From NCBI GenBank assembly GCA_037146675.1, contig JBAWWR010000001.1, positions 260 through 64,259 on the forward strand: DNA of 64,000 bases, in the 5' to 3' direction. The notes under the pieces are model-generated. The model worked only from the letters and a program-made list of their open reading frames with translations, was not told where the DNA came from and did no database searches. Origin of the DNA: Verrucomicrobiota bacterium. GTDB taxonomy: Bacteria; Verrucomicrobiota; Verrucomicrobiia; Palsa-1439. Below, piece by piece: positions 8,625 through 64,000 of the stretch; positions within the stretch are counted from its first letter, which is position 1, and each line of letters starts with the position of its first letter. The translations under genes were made by a program, and so were the position numbers.

Positions 8625-9898
8625 GTTGTGGCTGGTGCACTCCCGGCGGCAGTTTCCCGCCGTTCTTGTTCGGCGACCACCGATTGAAATACGGCAGTGG
8701 CTTTATCTTCACCGACAATATTGCTCAAATCAGCAACGTCAGCCGCTAGTAAACCTTCGAGAGAATGGAAGCCCGATTTCACCAACATCTGCGCAACTTC
8801 GGCTTCGATGCCGGGAATAGCGCACAATTCTTTCACGGCGCGGGCGACCTTGGCATCAAAACCGAGTTCAGCCGTCTCTTCTTTTTCAATGTCCACGTGC
8901 CAGCCGGTCAGCTTCGCAGTCAGTCGCGCGTTTTGGCCTTTTTTACCAATAGCCAACGATAGCTGGTCATTATCAACAATAATGCGAACAGAATGACGGT
9001 CTTCGTCAATAATAAGATTCTTTAATTTCGCCGGCGCCAAAGCGTTGGCGACGTATTGCCGGACGTTCGGATCCCAGCGAATGATGTCAACCTTCTCGCC
9101 GCTCAGTTCGCGAACGATATTTTTGACACGCATGCCCTTCATGCCGACGCAAGCGCCAACCGGATCGACTTTTTCGTTACGCGACCAAACGGCAATTTTA
9201 CTGCGGAACCCAGCTTCGCGAGCGATAGCCTTGATTTCGACTGTCTTATCGGCAATTTCGCTCACTTCAAGCTCAAACAGTTTCTTGATAAAATCTGGAT
9301 GACTGCGCGACAACACGATGTCGGGACCGTGTCCGCCGCTGTCCACGCTGAGAACGTAGGCGCGGATGCGGTCGCCGGGTTGATATTCTTCGGTTGGAAC
9401 GCGTTCACGACTCGGCATGACCGCTTCGATGCGACCCAAATCAACAATCACATCGCTGCGTTCAAAACGGCGCACAGTGCCGGCCAGAATATCGCCGGTG
9501 CGGCCTTTGAACTCATCAAAAACCATGCCCTTTTCAACCTGCCTGATTTTTTGGAGCATTGCCTGTTTGGCCGTTTGTGCGGCAACGCGACCAAAGTTAG
9601 CCGGCGTGACTTCAACATCGACCGTCTCGCCAAGTTGAGCAGTGGGTTTGCGTTTGCGGGCCTCGGAGAGCGAAATCTCGTCGTGCTTGCTAACGACGTT
9701 TTCGACAATCACCAATGTAGCCAGTGCACGGATTGCCCCAGTTTTGCGGTCAATCTCAATGCGGAGCTCGCGGGCCGGGCCGACAGATTTCTTGGAAGCC
9801 TGCAACAAAGCCTGTTCGACGGCTTGAATCAAGATTTCCTTGTCAATACCCTTCTCGCGCTGCAAATATTCTAAGACTGCAATCAGTTCGCCGTTCAT
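8621..9898 (-). CDS. nusA: transcription termination/antitermination factor NusA
   Basis: 425 aa. N-terminal RNAP-binding domain, S1 and KH domains, and a C-terminal acidic region. Confidence 0.95.
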   Translation of the reverse strand: MNGELIAVLEYLQREKGIDKEILIQAVEQALLQASKKSVGPARELRIEIDRKTGAIRALATLVIVENVVSKHDEISLSEARKRKPTAQLGETVDVEVTPANFGRVAAQTAKQAMLQKIRQVEKGMVFDEFKGRTGDILAGTVRRFERSDVIVDLGRIEAVMPSRERVPTEEYQPGDRIRAYVLSVDSGGHGPDIVLSRSHPDFIKKLFELEVSEIADKTVEIKAIAREAGFRSKIAVWSRNEKVDPVGACVGMKGMRVKNIVRELSGEKVDIIRWDPNVRQYVANALAPAKLKNLIIDEDRHSVRIIVDNDQLSLAIGKKGQNARLTAKLTGWHVDIEKEETAELGFDAKVARAVKELCAIPGIEAEVAQMLVKSGFHSLEGLLAADVADLSNIVGEDKATAVFQSVVAEQERRETAAGSAPATT

Positions 9899-9930
9899 GC
9901 GTTACGTTTCCTGTGGCGCTCGGATTGTTC

Positions 9931-9963
9931 GAGAGAACAAAAAAGTGGGTTTTTGACCCACTT
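9931..9963 (-). terminator. Terminator-like hairpin plus T-tract in the nusA 5' leader (minus-strand orientation), a possible attenuator
   Basis: Plus strand reads aagtgggt-ttttg-acccactt: a perfect 8-bp stem with a 5-nt loop. On the minus strand the stem is followed by TTTTGTTCTCTC. It lies about 33 nt upstream of the nusA ATG. Confidence 0.4.
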
Positions 9964-10064
9964 AATCCACTACCGCCAAAATCAACTGACGGGACTATAG
10001 GCAAAGCTTTTGGTGCGGTCAAGAAATTTCCCCGTAGATTGACAGGAGCACCAGTAATGGTAGT

Positions 10065-11141
10065 ATGCGCATCAGTAATATGGGTTGCAAACTTTTCAAT
10101 ACTCGCAGTTCGAAAAATCTAGCTCGGAACGCGGTTCGCCCGCGGTTTGGCTTAGTCTTGGTGTTGACGACGGTGTTTACGGGCGGATGCGGACAGGATG
10201 GAATCAAAACTTATACCGTCCCTAAAGAGGTGCCGGCACGGACTGATTCTCCAGGTCTCGCAGCTCCAGCAGGTGTATCGCCGTTAAAATGGAAGCTCCC
10301 TACCGGATGGCAGGAAGTTCCGTCGAGCAGCATGCGTGTCGCATCTTTCAAGATTACCGGCGCGGACGGCAAGCAAGCCGACGTAAGCGTCATTCCATTG
10401 CCGGGCGGAGCTGGTGGTGATTTAAGTAATGTGAACCGGTGGCGTGGTCAGGTCGGTTTGGCGCCGGTAGCCGAGGAAGAATTGCCAAAACTGACCGACA
10501 CTGTTGAAGTGGATGGTCAACCGGCGGCGCTTTATGAACTAACCGGTGACGCTGTTCGGATTCTGGCCGCCATCCAGCGTCGCGATGGAATGATGTGGTT
10601 TTTTAAAATAACCGGCGATAGTCAGCTCGTGGCGCAGGTAAGGCCGGCGTTTGTAGAGTTTCTCAAGTCAGTCCAATTTGTAACTAGCACCGCAATGCCA
10701 GCAGTAACTTCCGAAGTTGTGACGAGTAATGCTAAACCGAACTGGACCGTGCCGGCAGGTTGGCAGGAGATTTCTGGTGGGCAGTTTCTTGTGGCAAAAT
10801 TTGTGGTTACCGGCGACGGTGGTGCGCAAGCGGCGGTGAATATCAGCTCCTCAGCCGGTGACGGCGGTGGCTTGGCTGCTAATGTGAACCGGTGGCGAAA
10901 ACAGCTTGGGTTAAGCGAGCTCACCGGTGAAGAATTAGCGAAATCTGTGCAATCGATCGGTCCAATTACGCTCGTTGAAATGGCCGGTCAAGATGTGCGC
11001 ACCAGTCAGCCGACAGCGCTTATCGGCGTAATGGTGTCACAGGCCGGGCAGGTTTGGTTTTACAAGTTGATGGGCGACGCGACGGTTGTCGCGGCGCAGA
11101 AGGCGGCGTTCGTTCAGTTCGTACAAGGAGTGAAGTATTAA
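10065..11141 (+). CDS. lipoprotein with two tandem homologous domains, unknown family
   Basis: 358 aa. Signal peptide with lipobox (LVLVLTTVFTGGC). Two about 140-aa repeats share W-x-[LV]-P-x-GWQE, NVNRWR and WF[FY]K motifs. Stop lies 2 nt before the ccsB start. Confidence 0.6.
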   Translation: MRISNMGCKLFNTRSSKNLARNAVRPRFGLVLVLTTVFTGGCGQDGIKTYTVPKEVPARTDSPGLAAPAGVSPLKWKLPTGWQEVPSSSMRVASFKITGADGKQADVSVIPLPGGAGGDLSNVNRWRGQVGLAPVAEEELPKLTDTVEVDGQPAALYELTGDAVRILAAIQRRDGMMWFFKITGDSQLVAQVRPAFVEFLKSVQFVTSTAMPAVTSEVVTSNAKPNWTVPAGWQEISGGQFLVAKFVVTGDGGAQAAVNISSSAGDGGGLAANVNRWRKQLGLSELTGEELAKSVQSIGPITLVEMAGQDVRTSQPTALIGVMVSQAGQVWFYKLMGDATVVAAQKAAFVQFVQGVKY

Positions 11142-11142
11142 G

Positions 11143-12288
11143 ATGCTCGAACGACTTGCTGGTTTTTTCACCTCCCTGCGGTTGACCGTTGTATTGTTAG
11201 CGCTCGGCTTGGTGTTGGTGTTTTGGGGAACAATAGCGCAAGTGCATCTCGGGTTGTACCAGGCGCAGAATGAATTTTTCCGGAGTTTTTTCATTTACTG
11301 GTCACCGGCCGCATCAGGATTGCGGATCCCCGTTTTTCCAGGCGGTTATTTAATCGGTGGGTTGCTGCTGGCTAATTTAGTAGTCTACAACCTTCGCTTT
11401 GATCGATCCGTCAAGCGCCAACCTGGTCTTGTGGTGATTCACATTGGCGTTGGATTGTTGCTCATCGGCCAATTATTAACAGATGTTTTCTCAGCCGAAA
11501 GCATGATGCACATGCGTAATGGTGAGACCAAGAATTACTCAGAGGCATCGAGTCATTTCGAATTGGCTGTGGTGGATAAAACAGAAGTGGCAACGGATCA
11601 AGTCGTGGCAATTCCTGAGGCGTTGCTTCAACGAAAAGCAGTGATTCGCCATCCGAATCTGCCATTCAATATTCAGGTGCGCACATTTTACAGCAACTCA
11701 GCGCTAGTAGAAAAACCGCAAGAAGGTTTTACACAGCTCAACACCTCCGGTGGTTTTGGTGCCGGCGCTTGGTGGCGTGAATTGCCGCACGAAGCTGAAA
11801 CGGATCGACGTGATATGCCGTCCGCCATTGTGGAGCTACGCACTCCGCAGGGTTCGCTGGGAACTTATCTAGTGTCCGCCTACCTTGATCAACCGCAGGT
11901 GGTAAGTCTCAACGGTCGCCAGTACGAGTTGACGTTGCGCCCTGAACGCTTCTACAAACCGTTTAATCTACATCTGGTCGAGTTCCGCCACGATAAGTAT
12001 CCCGGCACAGATATCCCTAAGAACTTTTCCAGCCGCGTTCGTGTGCAGCGACCGGATACCGGCGAAGATCGCGAAGTGTTGATCTATATGAATAATCCAC
12101 TGCGCTACAATGGCGACACTTATTACCAAGCGAGTTTCGATACGGACAATCAAGGCACAGTGTTGCAAGTTGTCCATAATCCCAGCTGGCTCACGCCATA
12201 TTTCTCGTGCGTCCTAGTAGGCTTGGGATTGGTCTGGCAATTCCTACGCCATCTCATCGGATTCGCCGCAAAACGCAAAGCAACATGA
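11143..12288 (+). CDS. ccsB: cytochrome c biogenesis protein CcsB/ResB-like (short form)
   Basis: 381 aa. ResB-like N-terminal TM helix, a periplasmic domain and C-terminal TM helices. The stop overlaps the ccsA ATG (ATGA). Confidence 0.65.
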   Translation: MLERLAGFFTSLRLTVVLLALGLVLVFWGTIAQVHLGLYQAQNEFFRSFFIYWSPAASGLRIPVFPGGYLIGGLLLANLVVYNLRFDRSVKRQPGLVVIHIGVGLLLIGQLLTDVFSAESMMHMRNGETKNYSEASSHFELAVVDKTEVATDQVVAIPEALLQRKAVIRHPNLPFNIQVRTFYSNSALVEKPQEGFTQLNTSGGFGAGAWWRELPHEAETDRRDMPSAIVELRTPQGSLGTYLVSAYLDQPQVVSLNGRQYELTLRPERFYKPFNLHLVEFRHDKYPGTDIPKNFSSRVRVQRPDTGEDREVLIYMNNPLRYNGDTYYQASFDTDNQGTVLQVVHNPSWLTPYFSCVLVGLGLVWQFLRHLIGFAAKRKAT

Positions 12289-14297: not shown

Positions 14298-15728
14298 ATG
14301 CAAGGTGGCCATTATAAACCTTCATGGCAGCGTGATACTGAAGTTTTCGTTGTCAGCGCGCTGATTCTTTATCTTCAACTGGTACTGATTCGCTGGATCG
14401 GCACTGAAATTCGTATCTTTGCGTATCTGGGTAATCTTATTTTGGTCGCGTGCTTTTTCGGTACTGGGCTAGGTTGTTATCGCTCAGCACTGCCGGTATC
14501 GTTGACACGACTCGGGATCTACCTCTTACTGTTGACTGGTCTTGTGGCTAATCCACTGCATCTTGAATCTCTGAATTTAAGAAATCTGATTGATTGGCTG
14601 GCTGGGTTCGAAGATTCGCCAATGTGGGGTATGTTTATTGCGCCGCAACAAAGTCGAGTTGTTGTGGCGCTGGGTGTCGTGGGCGGGCTGTTGTATCTCA
14701 TAATCTTTATGTTCGTTCCCATAGGGCAGGTCCTTGGACGTGCCCTTAGTGAGCATCCTCATACAATTCAGGCATATTCTGTCAACATTATCGGTAGTCT
14801 GTCAGGAATCTGGCTATTTGCGGTCATGAGTTGGTGCCGGGCGACTCCGGTGGAATGGTTTGGGTTACTGGCAATTCTCGCAATTGTGTTGGCGTATGTG
14901 ACGGGCCATCGGAACTGGTGGTTCGTGGTTGCGTTAGGAATTATAGTTTGTTTTGTCTGGATCGGACAATCCAGCGGAGTACGCACCATCTGGTCGCCAT
15001 ATCAAAAGCTTGAAGTGCGACACCCTGTTTTAGCGGATTCACTCAAACAGGAGGCGCTTGATGGTGCGATTTACACCATCGCCGCCAACGGCACTGGCTA
15101 TCAACTGATATTGAATCTGGCCGATGATTTTCTGCGCACTCATCCCCGCCTTTACAACTTGGATCAAGCCCGGCTCAGTCATTACAATCTGGCCTTTCAA
15201 TTCAAACCCAGGATCCACCGCCTGCTCATTTTGGGCGCGGGCGCGGGAAACAATGCCGCAGCAGCCTTGCGCCACGGCGTGGAAGAGATTGATTGTGTTG
15301 AAGTCGACTCGGAGATTTACGCGCTGGGTAAAGAACTGCATCCTGAACGACCCTACAACTCACCGCGCGTTCACATGCATGTTACCGATGCGCGAGCGTT
15401 TTTGAAATCGGCAACCGGCTCTTACGACATGATTTGGTTCGCCTTACTCGATGCGCAGCCTGGCTCGTCTTATAGCAACCGGCAGCTTGATCATTATATG
15501 TACACGTTACAATCGTTAAAGGAGGCGCAACGGTTGCTAACACAGGATGGTATTTTGCTGGTAAATCTTGCGTCCCGGCGCAAATGGATTAGCGAGCGGC
15601 TTTACGGGATATTGCAGCAGGTCTTTGACCGGCCCCCAATGAGCTTTCTCCTGGAATTCAACGGCGCGTCGGAATACGGCCCGCCCGGTGAACTCACCCT
15701 GGTGACCGGCAACGGCGCGCCAACCTAG
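14298..15728 (+). CDS. membrane-anchored polyamine aminopropyltransferase (spermidine synthase)-like protein, N-terminal part ending at an in-frame TAG
   Basis: 476 aa. N-terminal multi-TM region plus PABS/SAM-MTase domain (LILGAGAGNNAAAALRHGVEEIDCVEVD, DMIWFALLDAQ). Terminates at TAG 15726-15728, but the frame continues. Confidence 0.75.
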   Translation: MQGGHYKPSWQRDTEVFVVSALILYLQLVLIRWIGTEIRIFAYLGNLILVACFFGTGLGCYRSALPVSLTRLGIYLLLLTGLVANPLHLESLNLRNLIDWLAGFEDSPMWGMFIAPQQSRVVVALGVVGGLLYLIIFMFVPIGQVLGRALSEHPHTIQAYSVNIIGSLSGIWLFAVMSWCRATPVEWFGLLAILAIVLAYVTGHRNWWFVVALGIIVCFVWIGQSSGVRTIWSPYQKLEVRHPVLADSLKQEALDGAIYTIAANGTGYQLILNLADDFLRTHPRLYNLDQARLSHYNLAFQFKPRIHRLLILGAGAGNNAAAALRHGVEEIDCVEVDSEIYALGKELHPERPYNSPRVHMHVTDARAFLKSATGSYDMIWFALLDAQPGSSYSNRQLDHYMYTLQSLKEAQRLLTQDGILLVNLASRRKWISERLYGILQQVFDRPPMSFLLEFNGASEYGPPGELTLVTGNGAPT

Positions 15729-15878
15729 CAAAATCTGCCGACTAACATCGAAGGCGACTATCTTCGGTCATGCCGCTGGCTAGCGCCGTCCCCGGCCACG
15801 ACCCGACTTACGACCGATGACTGGCCGTACCTATATCTTGAGCACGCCAAAATTCCGCGCCTACACTGGCTCGCCGCA

Positions 15879-16463
15879 TTGTCCCTGTTCGGTACAGTCC
15901 TGTTGCTGCGCAACAGGACGTTTGGCGGCCGTGCTAAGTTGAATTGGTATTACTTCTTTTTGGGCGCCGCATTTCTTCTGCTTGAAGTTCAAACAGTTAG
16001 CCGCGCCACACTCCTGTTCGGGATGACATGGATGGTGAATGTAATCGTGATTTCAGCTGTGCTGGGAATGATTCTATTGGCCAATCTCGTCGCCGCGTGT
16101 TGGCCAAAGTGGCCGGTCTGGATTGTTTATGCCGAACTGCTAGCCACAATTGCCGCGTTGGTACTTGTGCCGCTTGATTCCTTCAACTTGCTTACCGGTA
16201 CAATGAAGTTGGTGGCGGCAAGCACATTCCTAACAGCGCCGGCTTTCTTTGCTGGGTTAATTTTCATTCAATCCTTTGCCGTCTGTACCACCAAGTCGCA
16301 GGCGTTGGGTTCCAATCTCATCGGCGCGCTGGTAGGTGGCTTACTCCAATCGCTCTCATTCGTGACCGGGATCCGCTCGCTCATCGTTCTCGATGGAATT
16401 TTTTATCTCATGGTTTTCTGGCTGCGACCGCGCGCTGGTCGCCGATGCAACGTTGCGGCGTAA
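15879..16463 (+). CDS. C-terminal TM portion of the same aminopropyltransferase-like protein (same frame, open from 15729)
   Basis: Same reading frame as 14298..15728. The interval 15729-15878 is open and encodes TTDDWPYLYLEHAKIPRLHWLAALSLF, a motif expected to be contiguous with the PABS domain. This makes the pair a single gene interrupted by one TAG. Confidence 0.5.
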   Translation: MSLFGTVLLLRNRTFGGRAKLNWYYFFLGAAFLLLEVQTVSRATLLFGMTWMVNVIVISAVLGMILLANLVAACWPKWPVWIVYAELLATIAALVLVPLDSFNLLTGTMKLVAASTFLTAPAFFAGLIFIQSFAVCTTKSQALGSNLIGALVGGLLQSLSFVTGIRSLIVLDGIFYLMVFWLRPRAGRRCNVAA

Positions 16464-22538: not shown

Positions 22539-24575
22539 TTGCTCACCGGCGATAAAGTCTTTAGCATTTTCGCCATCAAGACAAAGTTCAATAAAAGTTC
22601 CCGCTGGTTGCGTTGCCTCGGTGTCGGCAATGCCGACCAGCCATCGTTTTTACTGATCGCGCTCTTTGCCTTCGCCAGTATGATCATCATTGGTTATCGT
22701 TTTGCTGTCTGGGATCAACTGTTGTACCTGAGTTTTGTCGACCGGTATTTCCAGCCGATTCTTGATCATCCCGGCGATCTCTACATCAGTCATTTTCTCT
22801 GGCACAGTTACACGACATTCTGGATGCTGATTTACCCAATCAAGCAGCTATTTGGCTGGGAATGGCCGCTTTTTATCATCCACGTGCTGGTCAAGTTTTT
22901 CATCTTCTGGGGTGTCTGGTCGTTGGCCTTCGCGTTGACTAAAGACCGACTGACCGCGTGGCTCAGTGTCCTGCTGATGCTGATGAACAAGGCGGTCATC
23001 GGCGGCGGAGTCAACTTCTACATGGCCGATACAATCACCCGCTACGTCGCGCTGCCATTCATGCTGTTCGGCATTAAAAAACTTTGGGATCGGAAATATC
23101 TCGGCGCGGCGTTGCTTTTCGGAATCGGCGTCCAGATTCACATTTTGACTGTGACCTATTGGTTTTTGGCGATCATTATTGGCATGGGTATTTACCGGTT
23201 TTTTAACGCCACGGCATCTTCGCAGACTGATCAGCAAAACAGGCACCGGCATATCGCCAAGTCAGTCGGGTTGTTTCTTTTGCTGGCGCTTCCGATTATC
23301 ATTTGGTTTGGCATTGCGGAATGGGGAGCGTCGAGCCCTCCGGCAAATGCGGATTTCATCGATTTAATCCACAACCATTTCGGTTACGTATTCCTGACGG
23401 ATTACGACTCCCTAACGTGGAAGACGTTGTTTCTATTTGTTGTGATTATTGTCGTCGCCTTGCGCTACTTACCCCAAAACGACTGCAGCCGCTGGTATCT
23501 GCCGTTCACGTTTGCAATCATCGCGGTCATGGGTATTCACTTCCTGGCCGCTGATGTATTTTTCTGTCACCCCATTCTCAAGCACCAAATGTGTCGCATC
23601 ATCGACCTGCTCGGCCTGTTGACCATGTTTGGCGCGGCGCGAATCCTTGCGGTGCACGCTCAGCGGGCCGGCTGGCAGCGTTGGCTTGCCGCTCCGGTCG
23701 CCGCGTTGTTTCTCGTTGCCACCGTCACGCCGGGAATTAACGCCGTCTTACTTGCCACGGCCACGCTCTTTCTTATCTTGCTCGTTCTTGAGCCTCAACC
23801 CGGTCGCTTTACAATCCCGGCCTTCCTAATCCTGCTCATCTTCATTTTTGCGCAACTTTGTTATCCCGCCAATTTCGGCATCGGTTCATTGCGCCGGCCA
23901 ATCTGGACCCTGCTCATTGTGAGCTTGCTAGCAATTGCGATTTTGTTTTTTACCGGTTGGTTCGCCACGCTGACCAATCGGCGCCTCATTATCAGAAACG
24001 CGACATTTGTCATTTGTTTGACCGGTCTCATATTGCTGGTCGCCTTCGAACGGATTGCCATCGCTGAAATCAGTTCGAATTATTCAAAAGCTCCGCTCAC
24101 CAATCAAGAGCATTGGGACCGCATGGTGCATCGCACACGGGAAAACCTCGATTGGCCGGGGCAGGGGATGCAAACTGATTGGATTCAGTTCCAGCTCTGG
24201 ATTCGCGACAACACGCCGCCCGGTACCATGTTCTTCGTTCCGCCGGGCCTGAATGGTTTCCGCGTTTTCTCACAGCGCAACGCTTTCTTTGAAGGCTACG
24301 ATTGTGAACCGACCATTTTCAACATCAGCTACGCTACTGATCTATTGGAACGCATGAAAGTCTTGGGGTATTCGTCAGCGCCGGCAAGCAGTCGGAATGC
24401 CGCCGATAAGTCCGAGCAAATATATTACGCCGTCAAGCCGTCTGAATGGCAGGAGCTATCACAACAATGGGACGTGCCGTATCTCATCATGAGCCGGCCA
24501 GTGAAGTCGCCATTTCAGAAACTCTACCAACGCGGCGACCTGACACTCTGGCGCATTCCCACGCCAGCACCTTAG
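22539..24575 (+). CDS. large polytopic membrane protein with a C-terminal extracytoplasmic domain (GT-C-like glycosyltransferase candidate)
   Basis: 678 aa. About 12 predicted TM helices, then a soluble C-terminal domain of about 200 aa. Immediately followed by the ABC exporter (19-nt gap). Confidence 0.6.
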   Translation: MLTGDKVFSIFAIKTKFNKSSRWLRCLGVGNADQPSFLLIALFAFASMIIIGYRFAVWDQLLYLSFVDRYFQPILDHPGDLYISHFLWHSYTTFWMLIYPIKQLFGWEWPLFIIHVLVKFFIFWGVWSLAFALTKDRLTAWLSVLLMLMNKAVIGGGVNFYMADTITRYVALPFMLFGIKKLWDRKYLGAALLFGIGVQIHILTVTYWFLAIIIGMGIYRFFNATASSQTDQQNRHRHIAKSVGLFLLLALPIIIWFGIAEWGASSPPANADFIDLIHNHFGYVFLTDYDSLTWKTLFLFVVIIVVALRYLPQNDCSRWYLPFTFAIIAVMGIHFLAADVFFCHPILKHQMCRIIDLLGLLTMFGAARILAVHAQRAGWQRWLAAPVAALFLVATVTPGINAVLLATATLFLILLVLEPQPGRFTIPAFLILLIFIFAQLCYPANFGIGSLRRPIWTLLIVSLLAIAILFFTGWFATLTNRRLIIRNATFVICLTGLILLVAFERIAIAEISSNYSKAPLTNQEHWDRMVHRTRENLDWPGQGMQTDWIQFQLWIRDNTPPGTMFFVPPGLNGFRVFSQRNAFFEGYDCEPTIFNISYATDLLERMKVLGYSSAPASSRNAADKSEQIYYAVKPSEWQELSQQWDVPYLIMSRPVKSPFQKLYQRGDLTLWRIPTPAP

Positions 24576-54607: not shown

Positions 54608-55489
54608 CTATTCGCTCTTTCCGGCAACCGGCAATTGTAGATGCTGGATGATGGGGTTGCCGGATATGAGGAAACCGGACTGCATCGAAGCCCGGTAGTT
54701 CCGCGGTGAGAGGCCGTACACCTTGTGGAACTTATTTGAGAAGTGGTACGGCGATGCGAAACCGACGGTATCGGCCACTTCTCGAATCGGCAGATTGCTG
54801 CGCACCAGCAACGACGCGGCGCGCTCTAACCGGGCGAGACCGGCGCATTCGAGCGGACCGAGATTGAGGTGGCGGCGAAACAGTCGACACAGATATTCAG
54901 GCGAGACGTGTGCTGCTTTGGCCAGTGCCGGCAATGTAATTGGTGCCGGTGGATCATGGGCGAGCGCCTGGCGAATCGCTCGCAGCGCGTTTTGGATGGC
55001 CGGCGGAAGATTCTCCAACGGCTCGAGCGCAACCGCCGTTTGGTTGCCGAGATAGCCGCGCAACATCAATGTGACTGCCGCCTCCAATAACGGTGCGTGG
55101 TCCGGTGTCTGGTTTTGTGCCATTCCAATGACATATCGGAACAGCGGTCGAAGAATATCTTCCGACGCCATGGTTCGCGATAGTGGCCATTCATTCAATG
55201 GCGGCCAGCCGGGATCTGAATAGTCAAAGCTGAAATGAAAAAAAGCCTGAATGGTGCGCCGCGTTGAATCCCAATCATAACGATCGGTGATGCCGGGGCG
55301 CCCGAGCAACACAGTGCCGGCAGGTGCTTCAATTGGCCGTCCATCAAAGCTGGCCTTGGCGTGGCCATCAATAATCCACACAAATTCAAAATCGTGTAAT
55401 AGCCGTGGACCGAATGTTGCGCCCGGTGGATAGGCAGCAATACCGGCGTTGCCGACGAGTAAGCCTTCAGTTGTGACGGAGCTCGACAT
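54608..55489 (-). CDS. AraC-family transcriptional regulator (cupin-like sensor plus HTH_AraC)
   Basis: 293 aa. C-terminal AraC HTH signature (EVADTVGFASPYHFSNKFHKVYGLSP). Divergent from the corrinoid gene cluster. Confidence 0.85.
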   Translation of the reverse strand: MSSSVTTEGLLVGNAGIAAYPPGATFGPRLLHDFEFVWIIDGHAKASFDGRPIEAPAGTVLLGRPGITDRYDWDSTRRTIQAFFHFSFDYSDPGWPPLNEWPLSRTMASEDILRPLFRYVIGMAQNQTPDHAPLLEAAVTLMLRGYLGNQTAVALEPLENLPPAIQNALRAIRQALAHDPPAPITLPALAKAAHVSPEYLCRLFRRHLNLGPLECAGLARLERAASLLVRSNLPIREVADTVGFASPYHFSNKFHKVYGLSPRNYRASMQSGFLISGNPIIQHLQLPVAGKSE

Positions 55490-55545
55490 GTCAATTACCG
55501 GTAGGTTTCCGTAATTTTAAGGTATTGTCAAGAATGCGGACTTCT

Positions 55546-55564
55546 GATAGTTCTGACGATAGTT
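55546..55564 (+). promoter_or_regulatory. candidate AraC-type operator: direct repeat GATAGTT-N5-GATAGTT in the divergent intergenic region
   Basis: ctGATAGTTctgacGATAGTTgcgac lies between the AraC start (55489) and the corrinoid-protein start (55627). An SD aggag sits 8 nt before ATG 55627. Confidence 0.3.
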
Positions 55565-55626
55565 GCGACTTGCCGACGGTTGTAGCTGGTCAATTCACAG
55601 CAGGCGCAACACTAACAGGAGACAAA

Positions 55627-56259
55627 ATGAGCGACCTACAGAAATTGTCCGAGTTCGTGGAAAAAGGCAACCGCAACGAAGCGAAGCGGTTGACCAATGA
55701 GCTGCTCGCTGCCGGAATGAAGCCCCTCGATGTTGTCGAACAAGGCTTGGTGCCTGGGATGAATTCCATCGGTGAGAAATTCAAAAACAACCAGATTTTT
55801 GTCCCCGAAATGTTGATCGCCGCCCGTGCCATGAAAGAATGCATGGCCATCCTCGAACCCCTGCTTGTTGAAGCCGGTATCAAGCCCAAATTCACCGCCG
55901 TAGTTGGCACGGTCCAGGGCGACCTCCACGACATCGGCAAAAACCTGGTGGCGATGATGTGGAAGGGCGCCAACTTCGGCGTCGTCGACCTCGGCACCAA
56001 CGTGTCGCCGGAAAAATTCATCGCTGCTGCCAAAGAACACAACGCCCAAGTCATTGGCCTTTCCGCATTGCTCACCACCACCATGCCGGCGATGAAGACC
56101 ACAATTGCCGCCGTTAAAGCCGCCGGTCTCAAGGGCGTCAAAGTCGTCATCGGCGGCGCGCCAATCACTAACGAGTTCGCTATGGAAATCGGTGCCGACG
56201 GTTTCGCGCCCGATGCCGCGAGCGCCGTGGATATGGTCCGGAAACTTATGGCGGCGTAA
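55627..56259 (+). CDS. corrinoid (cobalamin-binding) protein, MtaC/MtbC-like
   Basis: 210 aa. B12-binding_2 helical cap plus Rossmann B12-binding domain with the DxHxxG motif (GDLHDIGKN). Confidence 0.85.
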   Translation: MSDLQKLSEFVEKGNRNEAKRLTNELLAAGMKPLDVVEQGLVPGMNSIGEKFKNNQIFVPEMLIAARAMKECMAILEPLLVEAGIKPKFTAVVGTVQGDLHDIGKNLVAMMWKGANFGVVDLGTNVSPEKFIAAAKEHNAQVIGLSALLTTTMPAMKTTIAAVKAAGLKGVKVVIGGAPITNEFAMEIGADGFAPDAASAVDMVRKLMAA

Positions 56260-56284
56260 GCGCGCCCCCACGAACAAATTAGCC

Positions 56285-57238
56285 GTGACTCCACGCGAAC
56301 GCTTTATTGCCGCGTTAGAATGCCGTCCACTCACCGGTCGCGTTCCGCATTTTGAGCTCGTGTTTTTTCTGACGATGGAAGCGTTTGGTAAGGTCCACCC
56401 GAGTCATCGCAGTTACCATCAGTGGTTGCAAATGGAAGAAAAAGAACGCGCCTTGCACCGGCGCGACATGGCGGACCTCTACCTCGCCACGGCGGAACGC
56501 TTTGAGCACAGCGCGATTTTTATCCACCCCAATCCGAACAATATCGAAGAGACTTGCCGACTCATCGATCTGATTCGCGAACGCAGCGGCGATCGATACT
56601 TCTTGATGCGGCACGGCGACGCAACGTTCGAATTACCAAATGGCGAACGGATGGTCGAATTTGCTTACCGTCTGGCGGACGAACCGGAGAAAGTCCACGC
56701 CGAGGCGCAGGCAGCAGTGGACGGCGCATTACAACGTGCTGAAGCCTACGCCAAGCATGGCGAACTGGATGGCTTTGCACTGTGCTCAGATTACTGCTTC
56801 AATTCCGGTCCATTTCTTAGCCCGGCACAGTTTGGTGAATTCATCACGCCCTATCTCGCCAAACTTACAAAAGGTTACCGGGATCTCGGTTTCTACGTTA
56901 TCAAGCACACCGACGGCAACATTATGCCGGTCCTCGACCAGCTGGTGCAGACCAATCCGCACGCGCTTCACTCGCTCGATCCCCAAGGCGGCGTGGACAT
57001 GGCGGAGATTAAAAGGCTCGTTGGCCAGAAAGTCTGCCTCATTGGCAATGTCAACTGCGGCTTGGTTGATACCGGCACTGATGAGCAAGTCATTGAGTCT
57101 ACCCGTTACGCTCTACGGCACGGGATGCCGGGTGGTGGTTATATTTTCTCAACGAGCAATTGCATCTATACCGGCATGCGTTTGGCCCGGTATGAACTAA
57201 TGCTCGATGTCTGGCGCAAAGAAGGCAACTATTCGTGA
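56285..57238 (+). CDS. UroD/MtaA-superfamily methyltransferase-like protein, paralog 1
   Basis: GTG start (MTPRERFIAALECRPL). About 317 aa. Conserved HTDG block (VIKHTDGNIMPVLDQL). 4-nt overlap with the next gene. Confidence 0.8.
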   Translation: MTPRERFIAALECRPLTGRVPHFELVFFLTMEAFGKVHPSHRSYHQWLQMEEKERALHRRDMADLYLATAERFEHSAIFIHPNPNNIEETCRLIDLIRERSGDRYFLMRHGDATFELPNGERMVEFAYRLADEPEKVHAEAQAAVDGALQRAEAYAKHGELDGFALCSDYCFNSGPFLSPAQFGEFITPYLAKLTKGYRDLGFYVIKHTDGNIMPVLDQLVQTNPHALHSLDPQGGVDMAEIKRLVGQKVCLIGNVNCGLVDTGTDEQVIESTRYALRHGMPGGGYIFSTSNCIYTGMRLARYELMLDVWRKEGNYS

Positions 57239-58347
57239 CCGCGTTCCGGGAGCTCACCGGTTGGACCGCTAATCTACAGAGAATTGCCAGTCAGCCGCTT
57301 GAGTTTTGTCCCGATTTACCAGCCATCGCGCGCCGGTATGAAGCGTGGTGGGCGTGCGCCTGCACTGACCGTCCGATTTTCATCGGCTCCGCCAACGCCA
57401 ATCCCGCCCGCCCGATTACCAAGCGGTTGGAATTGCTCCACCGTCCCGAGGAATGGTTTGCCGCCAAACTGCAAGACCTGCATCAAACCTACCGGGTCGG
57501 CGATGCGTTGCCGCACATTCGCGCCGACTTCGGTCCGGTCTTACTGGGTGGCTTGTTGGGTGGCACAATCGAGTTTGGTTCTGGCACGACTTGGACGCAC
57601 CCGTTTATCAACGACGACTGGTCGAACGCACCAGATTGGCAATTACGCGACGACCATCCCCTGCTCCAACGGCTCCGCCAACTGACGGAATTGGTTGCCC
57701 AAGATTGTGCTGGCCGGTACCTCGTCTGCACGCCGGACCTTGGTGGGTCGGCGGATGTGCTGCTGAATTTGCGCGGCTCGTCGGCGTTATGTCTTGATGT
57801 GGTCGAACAATCTGACCGAGTGCGTGGCGCGATTGAGGCAATCTATCCGGTGTGGGAACGTACGTTCACGGAGCTTTATCGAATTGCCACTACGAACAAC
57901 GCCGGTTTAATTCATTGGCTGGGATTATGGGCGAGTCGTCCGTATATGATCCCGGCGTGTGACTTCAATTTCTTAATCGGCCCGGACGAATTTGAAAAGA
58001 TCTGCTTACCGGACATTGCCAAACAAGCTGCAACCGCTGGCCGCGCTGTATTTCATCTCGATGGTCCCGGCGCGGCTCGACATATTGATGCGTTGCTGGA
58101 AGTGCCAGAGTTACAGGCAATCCAGTTCGTCCCCGGCAGCGTGACGCCGTCGGTACTGCCGTGGGTGTCGATGTTCCGAAAAATTCAGACGGCCGGGCGC
58201 GCCTTATACGTCGTCAGCCCGGTCGATGAAGTGTTGGCTCTCTGTGACGCCTTGCGGCCGGAAGGATTGGCCATTAACTGCTGGCCGAGCACGCCGCGGG
58301 CTGCCGACGACCTATTTGCACAATTTTCGCGGAGATACAACACGTGA
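57235..58347 (+). CDS. UroD/MtaA-superfamily-like protein, divergent subgroup, paralog 2
   Basis: 370 aa. HLDG block (AVFHLDGPGAARHIDALLEV). Clearly homologous to 61457..62551 (shared RYLV..PDL and CDF motifs). Confidence 0.7.
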   Translation: MTAFRELTGWTANLQRIASQPLEFCPDLPAIARRYEAWWACACTDRPIFIGSANANPARPITKRLELLHRPEEWFAAKLQDLHQTYRVGDALPHIRADFGPVLLGGLLGGTIEFGSGTTWTHPFINDDWSNAPDWQLRDDHPLLQRLRQLTELVAQDCAGRYLVCTPDLGGSADVLLNLRGSSALCLDVVEQSDRVRGAIEAIYPVWERTFTELYRIATTNNAGLIHWLGLWASRPYMIPACDFNFLIGPDEFEKICLPDIAKQAATAGRAVFHLDGPGAARHIDALLEVPELQAIQFVPGSVTPSVLPWVSMFRKIQTAGRALYVVSPVDEVLALCDALRPEGLAINCWPSTPRAADDLFAQFSRRYNT

Positions 58348-59354
58348 CATCACGGGATCTTGTTCGGCAAACATTGAATTGGGAAAATCCGCTCCGGGTG
58401 CCGCGCGAATTGTGGATGTTACCGGCGGCAACGGCGAAGTATCCAGCGGAATGCGTCGCATTGGCGCGCGAGTTCCCTGCGGACTTTGCCGGCATTGACG
58501 GGCACACGCGCGAACTGGCGCCGACAAAAGGCGACTGGTACGCAGTCGGCGAGTACGTGGATGCGTGGGGCTGCACGTTCATCAACATCCAATACGGCGT
58601 CCACGGCGAAGTGAAAGACCCGCTGGTGAAAGATTGGATGACCGACCGCGCGAGGATTCATATACCACGCGAGTGGCTGACAATTGACCGGGATGCAATC
58701 AATCGCGATTGCGCGGCGACGACTTTGTACACAGCTGGCGGGGCAAACCCGCGCCCATTTGAACAACTCCAGTTTTTACGCGGCACGGAAAATCTGTTCA
58801 TGGATTTGCTGGACCCGGAGCCGGTCATGCAGGCGTGCGTGAGCGAGATGCACGAGTTTTACTGCGAACAATTAACGCGCTGGGCCAAGACCGACGTGGA
58901 TTCGCTGCGGTTCATGGATGACTGGGGTTCGCAACGCGCACTGCTAATCGCGCCGGCGTTGTGGCGGCAATGGTTCAAGCCGCTGTACCGGGATTACGTT
59001 CAAATCGCGCACAGCCACGGCAAAAAGATTTTCATGCATTCCGACGGCTACATTCTCGATATCATCCCGGATCTAATCGAGATCGGTGTGGACGCGTTGA
59101 ACTCGCAAATTTTCTGCATGGGACTGGACCGGCTGACGCCGTTTGCCGGTAAGATCACGTTTTGGGGTGAGATCGACCGGCAATGCCTGTTGTCGGAAGG
59201 GACACCGGCGGAGATTGACCAAGCGGTGCGCAACGTGCACCGGCAGCTTTGGCGCAACGGTGGTTGCATCGCGCAATGCGAATTCGGCCCCGGCGGCAAG
59301 CCGGCAAATGTCCGGCAAGCCTTTCAATCGTGGAATGAGGTTACACAAGCATGA
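58344..59354 (+). CDS. UroD/MtaA-superfamily methyltransferase-like protein, paralog 3
   Basis: 336 aa. N-terminus MTSRDLVRQTLNWENPLRVP and HSDG block (IFMHSDGYILDIIPDLIEIGVDALN). Confidence 0.8.
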   Translation: MTSRDLVRQTLNWENPLRVPRELWMLPAATAKYPAECVALAREFPADFAGIDGHTRELAPTKGDWYAVGEYVDAWGCTFINIQYGVHGEVKDPLVKDWMTDRARIHIPREWLTIDRDAINRDCAATTLYTAGGANPRPFEQLQFLRGTENLFMDLLDPEPVMQACVSEMHEFYCEQLTRWAKTDVDSLRFMDDWGSQRALLIAPALWRQWFKPLYRDYVQIAHSHGKKIFMHSDGYILDIIPDLIEIGVDALNSQIFCMGLDRLTPFAGKITFWGEIDRQCLLSEGTPAEIDQAVRNVHRQLWRNGGCIAQCEFGPGGKPANVRQAFQSWNEVTQA

Positions 59355-60397
59355 CACCACGCGAACGCTGGTTGGCCTTATTTGATGGGCGTAAGCCGGA
59401 CCGGCACGTCACCGACTACTGGGCGACTAACGAGTTCCACGCCAAACTCCGACAAGCTGTCTGTATTACCGGCGACAGCGACAAGCCGCTGTTGGAAAAA
59501 CTCGGCATTGACCGGCCATTTCATCTCGGGCCAACTTGGAAATACAAACATCATCCCGATGATCCGTTGGCGAACGAATGGGGCATCCGGTTTGCAGAGG
59601 TTGACTACGGCACCGGCAGCTACGGCGAGGCAGTGCACTTCCCGTTGGCAAAATGCGACAGCACAGCTGACGTTCATGCGTTTCACTGGCCAAGCCCCGA
59701 CGACTACGATTATTCCGGCATCGCCGAAAAGCTCAGACAGAACAACGGTTACCGGATTGTCAAAGGCGGTAGCTATGAGCCGTTTTTGTTGTACTGCTGG
59801 ATGCGTGGAATGGAGCAAGCTTTCGAAGACATGCTCGTTAATCCGGAGATTATTACCGCAGCGCTGGGATATATTTTTGATTTCCACTACGAACTCAACC
59901 GGCGCATCTGGCAGGCTGGAAAGATTGACATGATGTATCTCGCTGAAGACCTTGGTGGCCAGACTGGACCGTTGATCAGTTTGGAGGCTTACCGTCGCTT
60001 TTTGCTGCCAAATCAGAAAAAGGTAGCAGCACTGGCGCGGTCGTTTGGCATCCGCGTGTTTTACCACACCGATGGCGCAGCGCGAATGTTCCTCCCGGAC
60101 CTCGTCAACGAAGTCGGGATCGATATCCTCAATCCGTTGCAATGGCGGTGCCCCGGCATGGACTTGTCGGGCTTGGTGCGCGATTACGGTGACCGGCTGA
60201 TCTTCCACGGCGGGATTGATAACCAGCAAACGCTCCCGTTCGGCACGGTGGAAGACGTACGCAAGGAAGTTCGCGAAGTCGCGGCGGTCATGCGCGATTC
60301 ACGGTGGATTTGCGCGCCGTGCCACAACATCCAAAGCGTCAGCCCGGCCGCGAATGTCATCGCCATGTACGAAACTATTCGGGAAATTCTAGTATGA
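59351..60397 (+). CDS. UroD/MtaA-superfamily methyltransferase-like protein, paralog 4
   Basis: 348 aa. N-terminus MTPRERWLALFDGRKPD and HTDG block (VFYHTDGAARMFLPDLVNEVGIDILN). Confidence 0.8.
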   Translation: MTPRERWLALFDGRKPDRHVTDYWATNEFHAKLRQAVCITGDSDKPLLEKLGIDRPFHLGPTWKYKHHPDDPLANEWGIRFAEVDYGTGSYGEAVHFPLAKCDSTADVHAFHWPSPDDYDYSGIAEKLRQNNGYRIVKGGSYEPFLLYCWMRGMEQAFEDMLVNPEIITAALGYIFDFHYELNRRIWQAGKIDMMYLAEDLGGQTGPLISLEAYRRFLLPNQKKVAALARSFGIRVFYHTDGAARMFLPDLVNEVGIDILNPLQWRCPGMDLSGLVRDYGDRLIFHGGIDNQQTLPFGTVEDVRKEVREVAAVMRDSRWICAPCHNIQSVSPAANVIAMYETIREILV

Positions 60398-61470
60398 AAT
60401 TGACAGGTCAAGAGCGCGTCAACCGCATGTTCGAACGCCGCGACCACGATCGCGTGCCGCGCCACGACTCGTTTTGGGCTGAGACTGTTCAGCGCTGGCA
60501 GAAGGAAGGTCTGACTGGCGGCGCGCCGGCTGCGCTGGAGCGATTGCAAAACGATATTCACAGCTTGAACTGGCTCTGGCCGATGGCGTACCCGGGCCGC
60601 GAGGAAGTTGTGAGCATGGATGCGGAGACGCGCGTAGTGCGCGACGGCAACGGTCGGCTCGCGCGGTTTTGGAATAACAAGAGCGGCACACCGGAACACC
60701 TCGGCTTTGAGTGTGACTCGCGCGAGAAATGGGAGAAAACTTTCAAGCCCGCCTTGCTGTCAACCGGCTTGCAACTCGACCCGGCGGCGATTGCCAAGGA
60801 GTTCCGTAATGGCCGGGCCGGCGGCCGCTGGTGTCATCTAACCGGCGTCGAAGGATTTGAGGAAACTCGCTCGCTCATGGGCGACGAAATTACTTTGATG
60901 GCGATGGTTGAAGATCCTGACTGGGTGCGCGATGTCTCGCGGACATTCACTGATGTCATACTATTCAACCTGAATGCCGCCCTAGCGACTGGCATCGCTC
61001 CGGATGGCCTTTGGATCTACGGCGACATGGCGTTCAAGACTTCCACAATGTGTTCGCCGCAGATGTACCGTGACTTGATCTGGCCTGACCACAAACGTCT
61101 CGCCGATTGGGCGCACGCGCACAACATGAAATTCATCTATCACACCGATGGCGACGTCAACGGCGTGTTGGACATGTACGTCGCCGCCGGCTTCGATTGC
61201 CTACAACCGTTGGAATGCAAAGCCAGCATGGACCTGCGCCGGCTCGCGCCGCAGTACGGCGACCGGCTCGCATTCTTTGGCAATATCGATGTGATGGTCT
61301 TAATGACTAACGACCGTGCCCGCATTGAAGCCGAAGTCAAAGCCAAGCTCGCCGCCGGCATGGCGACCAAGGGTTACATCTATCATTCCGATCACTCTGT
61401 CCCACCGCAAGTGAGTTGGGAAACCTATCAGTTCATCATTTCACTTTTGAATAAATATGGCCGGTACTGA
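60394..61470 (+). CDS. UroD/MtaA-superfamily methyltransferase-like protein, paralog 5
   Basis: 358 aa. ATGA overlap with the previous gene. HTDG block (FIYHTDGDVNGVLDMYVAAGFDCLQPLE). Confidence 0.8.
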   Translation: MKLTGQERVNRMFERRDHDRVPRHDSFWAETVQRWQKEGLTGGAPAALERLQNDIHSLNWLWPMAYPGREEVVSMDAETRVVRDGNGRLARFWNNKSGTPEHLGFECDSREKWEKTFKPALLSTGLQLDPAAIAKEFRNGRAGGRWCHLTGVEGFEETRSLMGDEITLMAMVEDPDWVRDVSRTFTDVILFNLNAALATGIAPDGLWIYGDMAFKTSTMCSPQMYRDLIWPDHKRLADWAHAHNMKFIYHTDGDVNGVLDMYVAAGFDCLQPLECKASMDLRRLAPQYGDRLAFFGNIDVMVLMTNDRARIEAEVKAKLAAGMATKGYIYHSDHSVPPQVSWETYQFIISLLNKYGRY

Positions 61471-62551
61471 ACCAACCCTCGCTTGGAAACCAGATTGGGG
61501 CGTGGCACGCGCCGCACTGACCGGCTGGTGGGAACACCGGGCGTTGGCGTTGCATGTCACTGCGCCGAAAGATCAGCCGTGGGAAAACATCCCCCACCCC
61601 GGTCAACCACGAGATCTCCAGCAACAATGGGCAGATGTTCCGCATTGGGTGGCCCGCAACATGGCTGAGGCCGCGCGCATATTTTACGGTGGCGTAGCTT
61701 TCCCGCGGTTATGGGCCGACATCGGCGGGCCCGGCAGCCTCGGCTTATTTCTCGGCGCGAAAGGCGTGCTCGCTCCGAGTACCGTCTGGTACGAGCCGGT
61801 TATTCACGAACCCGAATCATTCCCGGTATTGCGGCTCGACAAAACCTGCGACTGGTGGCGCCGGCACTTCGCGCTCATCGAACTCGCTCAACAACAGGCG
61901 CGCGGCCGGTATCTCGTCGGTTTCCCTGACCTGATCGAGAACGTTGATACGCTTGCCCAGCTGCGCGACGGCCAATTATTGCTGACGGATTTACTCGAGC
62001 GCCCGGCCTGGGTGCAGGCGAAGCTCGCGGAAATCAACACCGCCTTCTTCGAGTGCTACGATGCGTTTTGGCAAAAGCTCCGTGATCCGTGGGGCGGTTC
62101 AGCCTGGGACGCGTTTGAACTCTGGGGCCCCGGTAAGATTGCCAAGCTGCAATGTGATTTTTCCTGCATGATTTCCGAACAGATGTTCCGCGAGTTCGTC
62201 GTTCCCGGCCTGACCGAGCAATGCGAGTGGCTGGACTATTCGCTCTACCACCTCGACGGGACCAACGCTGTTCACCAACTAAACGCCTTGCTGGAAATCG
62301 AAGCGCTCGATGCCATTGAATGGACGCCGCAAGCCGGTCTGCCCGGCGGCGGTACGCCACAATGGTATGATCTCTACCGGCGCATCAAAGCCGCCGGTAA
62401 GAGCGTCCAGGCCGTTGGTGTCCAACCAGAAGAAGTTATGCCGCTTATTGACGCTGTCGGTGCCGAAGGTTTGTTCATCTGGGTCAACGCGTCGACCGAA
62501 ACAGTCGCGCGTGCCCTGCTCCACCGGACCGGCTGGCAAGGTGATGTCTGA
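61457..62551 (+). CDS. UroD/MtaA-superfamily-like protein, divergent subgroup, paralog 6
   Basis: 364 aa. HLDG block (SLYHLDGTNAVHQLNALLEIEALDAIEW). Homologous to 57235..58347. Confidence 0.7.
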   Translation: MAGTEPTLAWKPDWGVARAALTGWWEHRALALHVTAPKDQPWENIPHPGQPRDLQQQWADVPHWVARNMAEAARIFYGGVAFPRLWADIGGPGSLGLFLGAKGVLAPSTVWYEPVIHEPESFPVLRLDKTCDWWRRHFALIELAQQQARGRYLVGFPDLIENVDTLAQLRDGQLLLTDLLERPAWVQAKLAEINTAFFECYDAFWQKLRDPWGGSAWDAFELWGPGKIAKLQCDFSCMISEQMFREFVVPGLTEQCEWLDYSLYHLDGTNAVHQLNALLEIEALDAIEWTPQAGLPGGGTPQWYDLYRRIKAAGKSVQAVGVQPEEVMPLIDAVGAEGLFIWVNASTETVARALLHRTGWQGDV

Positions 62552-62743
62552 CCTCGCAACCGTTGGGTTTCGTCAGCAAGCATTAGTTAAAGCCAACGCC
62601 GAACTGACCAAACTAAAATGCGGCATTATATGTTCACCAGACTTAGTGTGATATTTTTACTTGGGTTACTGACACCGTTCCACCCCGGCTTCGGTCAAGA
62701 ACCACCAATGCCGCTGGGCACACCGACGGAGCCACAAGACTAG

Positions 62744-64000
62744 TGGCCGACGCAGCCGAGCAAGCTTCCATTTGTTCACACGCTGTTTACCAGCGACATG
62801 GTACTGCAACGTGACGTCGCCGATCCGATCTGGGGCTGGAGCAGACCGGGTGATCAGATTACGGTCACCGTTCAGCATTCCAAGGGACCCGGCGAGACCG
62901 CGACGGCCGTGGCCGGCGCGGACGGCAAATGGGTGACGAAGATCGGCCCGTTGCCGGCGGGTGGGCCAGTATCGCTCGCCATTCAAGGGGCCACGCAGAA
63001 GGTTGTGTTGACGAATGTGCTGGTGGGCGATGTCTGGCTGTGTGCAGGCCAATCGAACATGCTCATCCCGGTGCGCACGGCGGCCAACGCCGAGGATGAA
63101 ATTAAGCAGGGCAACCATCCGGAAATCCGCTCGTTCACCGTGGGCTTCTGGCCGTCGTTAGTGCCGGTGGCGGTTCCATTACCGTCGGTCTGGGACGTCT
63201 GTACCCCGGCCAAGGTGGGCGCATTCAGTGCCGTCGGTTACTACTTCGCGCGCGAAATCAACCAGGTCGAGAAGATCCCGATCGGCATCATCCACAGCTC
63301 CGTCGGCGCGACCACAGCCGAGGTTTGGATCAGCGGCGACGGGCTGCGCAAGCACATGCCCCATGACTTTCACGCGCCGCTTGACCGGCTGGCCAAGGAG
63401 AGCGGTGAGCCGGGCCGTGATTATTTCCAAGACGTTGAGAACTGGGCCGCGACCGTCGACCAGGCCAGCGCCCAGCAGTATTACACCTCCGCGACCACCG
63501 TGAACACGAACGACTGGCAGAACCTCCCGGTGCCGAAGCCGTGGAAAGAAGCCGGGCTGACCAACTTCAACGGGCTGGTCTGGTTCCGCACCTCCGTCGA
63601 GATTCCGGACGCTATGGCTGGGAAGCCAGTGATCATCTCCCTGTCGCAAATCGCCAGCACCGACATTACTTGGTTTAACGGCCGGCTGGTGGGCGTCACG
63701 CAAATCAGTGGCCGGCACCGCAAGTACCAGATTGACGGTGAATGGGTGAAGCCCGGCAAGAACCTGCTGGTCGTGGCCGTGGTCAGCTCGAATGCGTCCG
63801 CCGGCTTCTTTGGCGCGGGCCAGAATATGACCGTGCGTTCCACGACCGAAGACAAGAGCATCCCGCTTGCCGGGACGTGGCAGGTCAAACCGGGAACAGC
63901 CATGAAAGACATCACTCTGCCTTTCCCCCGGCCGCAACTGGGCTATTACAAAACCATTACCGGCCTGTACAACGGGATGATCGGGCCGCTGGCGCCCTTT
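62744..64000 (+). CDS. sialate O-acetylesterase-like (SASA/DUF303 SGNH-type carbohydrate esterase), partial at the window end, preceded in frame by a TAG
   Basis: FTSDMVLQRD N-terminus and GDVWLCAGQSNM catalytic Ser motif. An in-frame upstream segment 62630..62740 encodes a signal-peptide-like MFTRLSVIFLLGLLTPFHPGFGQ, but it is separated from the mature region by TAG at 62741-62743. Confidence 0.7.

Follow-up and report, generated by a model that had tools for sequence, protein, structure and literature searches.

The window, a stretch of 64,000 nucleotides that matches a Verrucomicrobiota metagenome-assembled genome (MAG) at NCBI, ends inside a gene for a carbohydrate esterase whose reading frame is interrupted by an in-frame TAG. 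The full esterase gene has about 702 codons, the last ~240 of which lie beyond the window, and the TAG falls between an N-terminal leader and the mature enzyme. The features of this locus are as follows.

62618 to 62743, plus strand: leader open reading frame (ORF) of the esterase gene, signal peptide and Pro-rich linker, closed by TAG
62642 to 62680, plus strand: hydrophobic core of the signal peptide, LSVIFLLGLLTPF, 13 residues
62741 to 62743, plus strand: in-frame TAG, which differs from TGG (Trp) by a G-to-A change at 62742 private to the window
62744 to 64000, plus strand: rest of the CE20 carbohydrate esterase (annotated as 'sialate O-acetylesterase'), cut by the window end
62798 to 62800, plus strand: internal ATG (Met61), the NCBI start of MEI8313872.1
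63047 to 63061, plus strand: GQSNM motif with the SGNH catalytic serine (block I), matched to its counterpart in the 9ega alignment
63515 to 63790, plus strand: GH2_N-like segment, a sugar-binding β-sandwich family (PF02837, E=5.3e-08)

The leader can be read from either of two in-frame start codons: ATG 62618 (MRHYMFTR...), chosen by the gene callers of the sibling contigs (independent assemblies of the same species, described below), or ATG 62630, which yield 41 and 37 codons, respectively. Its translation, MRHYMFTRLSVIFLLGLLTPFHPGFGQEPPMPLGTPTEPQD, divides into three regions, MRHYMFTR / LSVIFLLGLLTPF / HPGFG|Q, and displays the traits of a Sec-type signal peptide, namely a basic n-region, an h-region within the range of 10–15 residues and small residues at positions -3 and -1 (G-F-G|QEPP). 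An 11-mer Kyte-Doolittle scan places its hydropathy maximum at 2.6. The signal-peptide pattern is kept in 11 orthologues, the ...FGQEPP motif is likewise conserved in orthologues, and signal peptidase I would be predicted to cleave after GFG, at 62695|62696. An exact look-up of the 41-residue leader peptide returned zero records, and residues 1–41 of two intact 702-residue sibling proteins (P0262 and P0267) are identical to the leader in the window. A prior reading made from the letters alone (hereafter the sequence-only reading) had ATG 62630 open a secretion leader, which these Sec-like regions bear out, with ATG 62618 as an additional in-frame start.

Past the TAG, the frame remains open for 419 codons up to the window end and encodes WPTQPSKLPFVHTLFTSDMVLQRD..., followed by GDVWLCAGQSNM at 63026–63061. 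The window fragment scores 27.2 bits against the Pfam SASA family (PF03629; cut-off 24.8 bits), and its homologues carry precomputed PF03629 matches. In an intact sibling protein (P0264), residues 52–697 align to residues 28–643 of PDB entry 9ega with E=5.8e-130, and the same protein was also aligned to 9h4u and 7kmm. In these CE20 esterases, an ancillary β-sandwich is inserted into the SGNH domain (PMC12313940). The PF02837 match and the alignment of P0264 with 9ega show the same build, with β-sandwiches on the N- and C-terminal sides of an SGNH domain that a GH2_N-like ancillary domain interrupts. The product of the gene is a putative secreted CE20 carbohydrate O-acetylesterase, and the sequence-only reading was right that the frame goes on beyond 62741–62743 into a SASA-family enzyme. 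With the known members PpCE20_II (9EGA), Fl8CE20_II (9H4U) and XacXaeA (7KMM), the intact sibling shares a near end-to-end alignment to 9EGA, the GQSNM motif and the inserted β-sandwich; in contrast to these known CE20 enzymes, a premature TAG between signal peptide and mature enzyme is present only in the MAG studied here. The alignment to solved CE20 structures begins at residue ~46–52, right after the leader and linker, so the first ~45–50 residues represent the export signal and a Pro-rich spacer.

The public annotation starts further downstream. The internal ATG at 62798 sits 55 nt past the TAG, no Shine-Dalgarno-like sequence was found ahead of it (upstream sequence CGCTGTTTACCAGCGAC), and starting at this Met61 leaves out residues at the beginning of the alignment with the N-terminal β-sandwich of the solved CE20 structures. 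The NCBI protein built from it, MEI8313872.1 (P0261), is described as 'sialate O-acetylesterase, partial', has 636 residues, starts with MVLQRD and runs off the contig end. This is the outcome that the sequence-only reading anticipated under standard decoding, an enzyme begun at an internal Met and devoid of its export signal. MEI8313872.1 thus under-represents a protein that elsewhere in the species is a normal exported CE20 esterase.

The region directly upstream of the esterase gene (54608–62551) holds an AraC-type regulator on the minus strand, a protein with a B12-binding domain, four URO-D/MtaA-like methyltransferase paralogues and two proteins without Pfam matches, in a gene order that is conserved in the sibling contigs. 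By its predicted gene content, it resembles a gene cluster for corrinoid-dependent methyl transfer or demethylation that lies beside a glycan esterase. The esterase has corrinoid/MtaA-like methyltransferases as neighbours and not a xylan or xyloglucan utilisation locus, which sets it apart from PpCE20_II, Fl8CE20_II and XacXaeA.

The TAG codon in sibling assemblies and orthologues

Independent assemblies of the same species were retrieved by exact look-up of the 364-residue protein encoded next to the esterase (MEI8313871.1 of the NCBI MAG, which has locus tags WCG79_...). Their nucleotide identities to the window are listed below.

L009: ENA ERZ4224321, NODE_29, 218 kb, 48x; 99.98% identity to the window
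L012: Logan SRR12676969; one mismatch to the window in 2,931 bp, at base 62742
L010: NCBI GCA_964588885.1; 99.55% identity
L011: JGI 3300081887; 99.35% identity
L001: ENA BUCK21-1; 98.6% identity

Four of these assemblies (L001, L009, L010 and L012) are all the other same-species assemblies with DNA at 62741–62743, and all four read GAC TGG TGG where the window reads GAC TAG TGG. We compared 32,635 window positions at which two or more siblings have DNA without gaps, and just one base, the A at 62742, proved private to the window. With TGG in the siblings and no other private base, the TAG is therefore a private G-to-A transition at a conserved Trp codon.

The conservation of this Trp extends well beyond the siblings. 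In the cluster of proteins defined at 90% identity, all eight intact members (698–702 residues) carry PQDWWPTQ, and P0261, from the NCBI MAG, is alone in being truncated. A search of 5.8 billion proteins yielded orthologues of 670–702 residues; those that include their N-terminus join the same leader, FGQEPP...PQD linker and mature enzyme within a single ORF, and it is on the strength of this arrangement that the leader is assigned to the esterase gene. Among 11 tabulated distant orthologues that bear the leader (63–85% identity), the position of the TAG is occupied by W in 10 and by T in one. This comparison with orthologues, which the sequence-only reading had proposed, shows that the leader-stop-enzyme layout is not a product of chance: the 41 residues ahead of the TAG and those behind it are collinear with a single unbroken ORF in all orthologues. 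A scan of genome contigs for the esterase returned relatives at no more than 72% identity and a 36-residue fragment (L006). The frame past the TAG displays no decay: it is open, has zero indels relative to the siblings and retains an intact GQSNM motif.

The esterase gene also varies between strains in a separate manner. In some of them (L010, esterase gene at 9822–11930; P0267 and P0268), the segment of the ancillary domain at residues ~335–450 is swapped for a version near-identical to that of the sister-species protein P0004, while outside this segment the protein does not differ from the window type. The swapped segment has the look of a tract acquired by recombination within the putative substrate-binding domain, and it explains the high count of single-nucleotide variants (SNVs) of the esterase gene in the comparison of nonsynonymous and synonymous differences given below.

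Use of TAG as a stop codon and a second interrupted gene

The sequence-only reading counted two amber-interrupted genes in the 64 kb, and a second one is indeed present, in a gene for a membrane-bound protein resembling spermidine synthase. Its features, together with two TAG codons that served as controls, are as follows.

14298 to 16463, plus strand: membrane-bound spermidine-synthase-like gene with an in-frame TAG
15726 to 15728, plus strand: TAG fixed in the species, 30 codons before a TTDDWPYLY motif
6327 to 6329, minus strand: control, TAG ending the translation initiation factor IF-2 at its canonical C-terminus
24573 to 24575, plus strand: control, TAG ending a DUF6798 membrane protein

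TAG as a stop: TAG is a normal stop codon in this organism, which uses standard decoding. A census of the ~56 ORFs of the window judged to be genes gave 27 TGA, 20 TAA and 9 TAG stops, the last including the two in-frame cases; TAG therefore closes 7 of the ~54 other genes, and the depletion expected of a reassigned codon is not seen. The TAG that ends IF-2 stands where the protein should end, as its last 150 residues align to within 1–5 residues of the ends of full-length solved chains (569/571, 839/840 and 885/890). The TAG at 24573 was considered as the site of another interrupted gene and rejected, as the ABC exporter encoded downstream in this frame begins with an N-terminus of its own and forms a separate gene call in the siblings. 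ARAGORN detected only tRNA-His and tRNA-Pro in the 64-kb window, hence no tRNA(CUA), and no tRNA at all in six sibling loci (the scan covered the 64 kb and ~20 kb of sibling flanks); no pyl genes were found in the window. The contexts of the two in-frame TAGs differ, GAC TAG TGG (TAG-T) in the esterase gene versus ACC TAG CAA (TAG-C) in the spermidine-synthase-like gene, and no stable downstream RNA was predicted when 120 nt from each were compared with shuffled sequences (z=-0.30 for 62741–62860; z=+0.43 for 15726–15845).

Genuine UAG recoding is characterized by a UAG that is conserved across relatives, a dedicated tRNA(CUA), and a use of TAG stops that is depleted or altered. It is known from pyrrolysine, which occurs in methylamine methyltransferases, from the reassignment of TAG in some phages and from natural amber suppressor tRNAs. 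With these systems the esterase gene shares an in-frame UAG beyond which homology continues. It differs from them in that its codon is TGG in the siblings, TAG ends essential genes, and tRNA(CUA) was unseen in the loci scanned. In particular, the conservation of UAG that marks programmed readthrough is missing at 62741, where the siblings have TGG and the intact members of the cluster have W.

The spermidine-synthase-like gene: The TAG at 15726, unlike that of the esterase gene, is shared by the species. It was seen in seven assemblies (L013, L014, L015, L016, L097, L098 and L099) and is implied for the contig of P0223, a protein that ends there. The 244 codons that follow are intact and include the near-invariant TTDDWPYLY motif. 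Homologues of this gene are single ORFs of 700–723 residues; the nearest intact one (P0121, 71% identity, in another genomic context) has ACC TGG CAG at the corresponding site (L007). In JGI relatives, among the matches listed, the frame is open for ~500 codons upstream of the motif in most of those in which the motif was located. No relatives at 71%–97% identity to the gene were found in the databases searched, a third homology search found neither split nor intact relatives at 75–95% identity outside the species, and a scan of metagenome contigs with the C-terminal part gave no relative above 68% identity among the matches listed.

Strain differences in this gene amount to 10 nonsynonymous and 7 synonymous changes, compared with 53 and 101 elsewhere (Fisher p=0.06), a non-significant trend in the direction that a gene under relaxed constraint might display. 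The TAG at 15726 most likely marks a fixed pseudogene or a split gene, with a small opening left for a low level of readthrough maintained at this codon. This species-fixed TAG is the sole element of residual biological interest in the window.

Two short C-terminal fragments on long contigs, P0287 and P0348, were considered as independent cases of a split gene and rejected, as their source assemblies are full of fragmented genes and apparently indel-rich. In L100 (ENA ERZ25039454) and L102 (ERZ25039463), many genes are in 2–4 pieces, among them those for a sulfatase, a TRAM methyltransferase and the spermidine-synthase-like protein. These two assemblies look indel-rich, and the short 'split' homologues that they contain are therefore not readable as biological splits.

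Origin and consequences of the esterase TAG

The esterase TAG is, with high probability, either a nonsense allele of the ordinary kind or an error in the consensus, and not a recoding signal. It consists of a single G-to-A transition, from TGG (Trp) to TAG, in an otherwise intact gene for a secreted CE20 esterase. Translation from ATG 62618 or ATG 62630 would end at the amber codon after a leader peptide of 37–41 residues, and the exported esterase, and with it the function of the gene, would therefore be lost in this genotype. At most, inefficient reinitiation at ATG 62798 might supply a leaderless enzyme that is slightly clipped at its N-terminus. Like ordinary amber alleles and young pseudogenes in natural bacterial populations and MAG consensus sequences, the esterase TAG goes back to one transition, seen in one assembly whose gene is otherwise undecayed and which uses TAG in the standard way; no feature distinguishes it from them, and it was its position exactly between the leader and the mature domain that caught the eye.

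The sequence-only reading had argued that two amber-interrupted genes in 64 kb exceed the expectation for a clean isolate genome, and offered assembly or sequencing quality on the one hand and context-specific TAG readthrough on the other. Its premise does not apply to an environmental MAG, for which two disrupted genes among ~56 are ordinary, as environmental genomes usually carry pseudogenes at such a load. That both in-frame TAGs derive from TGG reflects how common G-to-A transitions are and not a change of the code. The first half of its explanation stands in the wider form of an error or a variant, given a private base at 62742 and TGG in the siblings; the second half falls, as the TAG is unconserved and serves as a normal stop.

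Allele or consensus error: Within this explanation, we lean towards the A at 62742 being a real, probably rare, loss-of-function allele. If it were instead a pure error of assembly or consensus, the organism would have TGG and a normal exported enzyme, a possibility that we regard as about half as likely as a true allele. It would fit with base 62742 being the only private base in the 32.6 kb compared, with the G found at this position in SRR12676969 (L012), which matches the window at every other base, and with an esterase gene that carries no other damage. However, substitution errors are rare in a short-read consensus, and the siblings differ from one another by 1–5 real SNVs per 21 kb, a density similar to that of the window, so that strain variation would be expected to give one private SNV; our lean towards a true allele rests on this similarity. 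A real allele would capture, at one moment, a loss-of-function variant that segregates in a lake population of Verrucomicrobiota, and would be unremarkable. For quality control, the lesson is that an in-frame stop in a single MAG consensus calls for a comparison with sibling assemblies before recoding is proposed; for the esterase TAG, this comparison settles the recoding question.

Readthrough: A partial decoding of UAG, for instance as Trp or Gln, through a context-specific effect or a suppressor tRNA, would render both interrupted genes full-length. It would account for two in-frame TAGs in 64 kb that are both TGG in relatives, and for the fixation of the TAG at 15726 in all strains ahead of 244 intact codons with the TTDDWPYLY motif. 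Set against this are the absence of the esterase TAG even from a sibling 99.98% identical to the window, the use of TAG to end IF-2 and other genes at an undepleted rate (9 of 56 stops, 7 once the two in-frame cases are set aside), the dissimilar contexts of the two codons and the lack of a stimulatory structure after either, as well as a search for tRNA(CUA) that was negative in the window and in six sibling loci. The ratio of 10:7 versus 53:101 in the spermidine-synthase-like gene, at p=0.06, leans toward decay. We therefore consider such readthrough in this organism very improbable, and hold it just as improbable that the species tolerates a low level of UAG decoding, by a near-cognate or suppressor tRNA and possibly as Trp. 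Were such decoding to take place, the spermidine-synthase-like gene would stay functional and the change from TGG to TAG in the esterase gene would be nearly neutral.

Change of localisation: Slightly less probable still is that the nonsense codon was selected because it lets ATG 62798 give rise to an esterase that lacks the leader and stays in the cytoplasm. The in-frame ATG 55 nt after the TAG and the NCBI annotation from this codon would agree with such a product. However, no ribosome-binding sequence precedes ATG 62798, a start at Met61 cuts into residues aligned to the N-terminal β-sandwich, the allele occurs in a single assembly, and all orthologues keep the leader.

Pyrrolysine: Insertion of pyrrolysine, or another programmed recoding of UAG, at the esterase codon has almost no probability: an in-frame UAG and adjoining corrinoid/MtaA-like methyltransferases, a theme loosely associated with pyrrolysine-using organisms, are outweighed by a codon that is TGG in the siblings and W in 10 of 11 distant orthologues, by a site in the Pro-rich linker after a signal peptide and not in the active site of a methylamine methyltransferase, and by a window with neither pyl genes nor tRNA(CUA) and no structure downstream of the codon.

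As a separate observation on the sibling contigs, NODE_29 (218 kb) and NODE_1551 (28 kb), two independent metagenome contigs (L009, L013, L014), have the same gene at the window coordinate +259. As the contig coordinates are identical, both contigs appear to start at one and the same point, ~259 bp ahead of position 1 of the window. The partial esterase P0261, at 636 residues, is consistent with the NCBI MAG contig (64,963 bp) having the same start, which suggests a repeat or an assembly breakpoint just upstream of the window.
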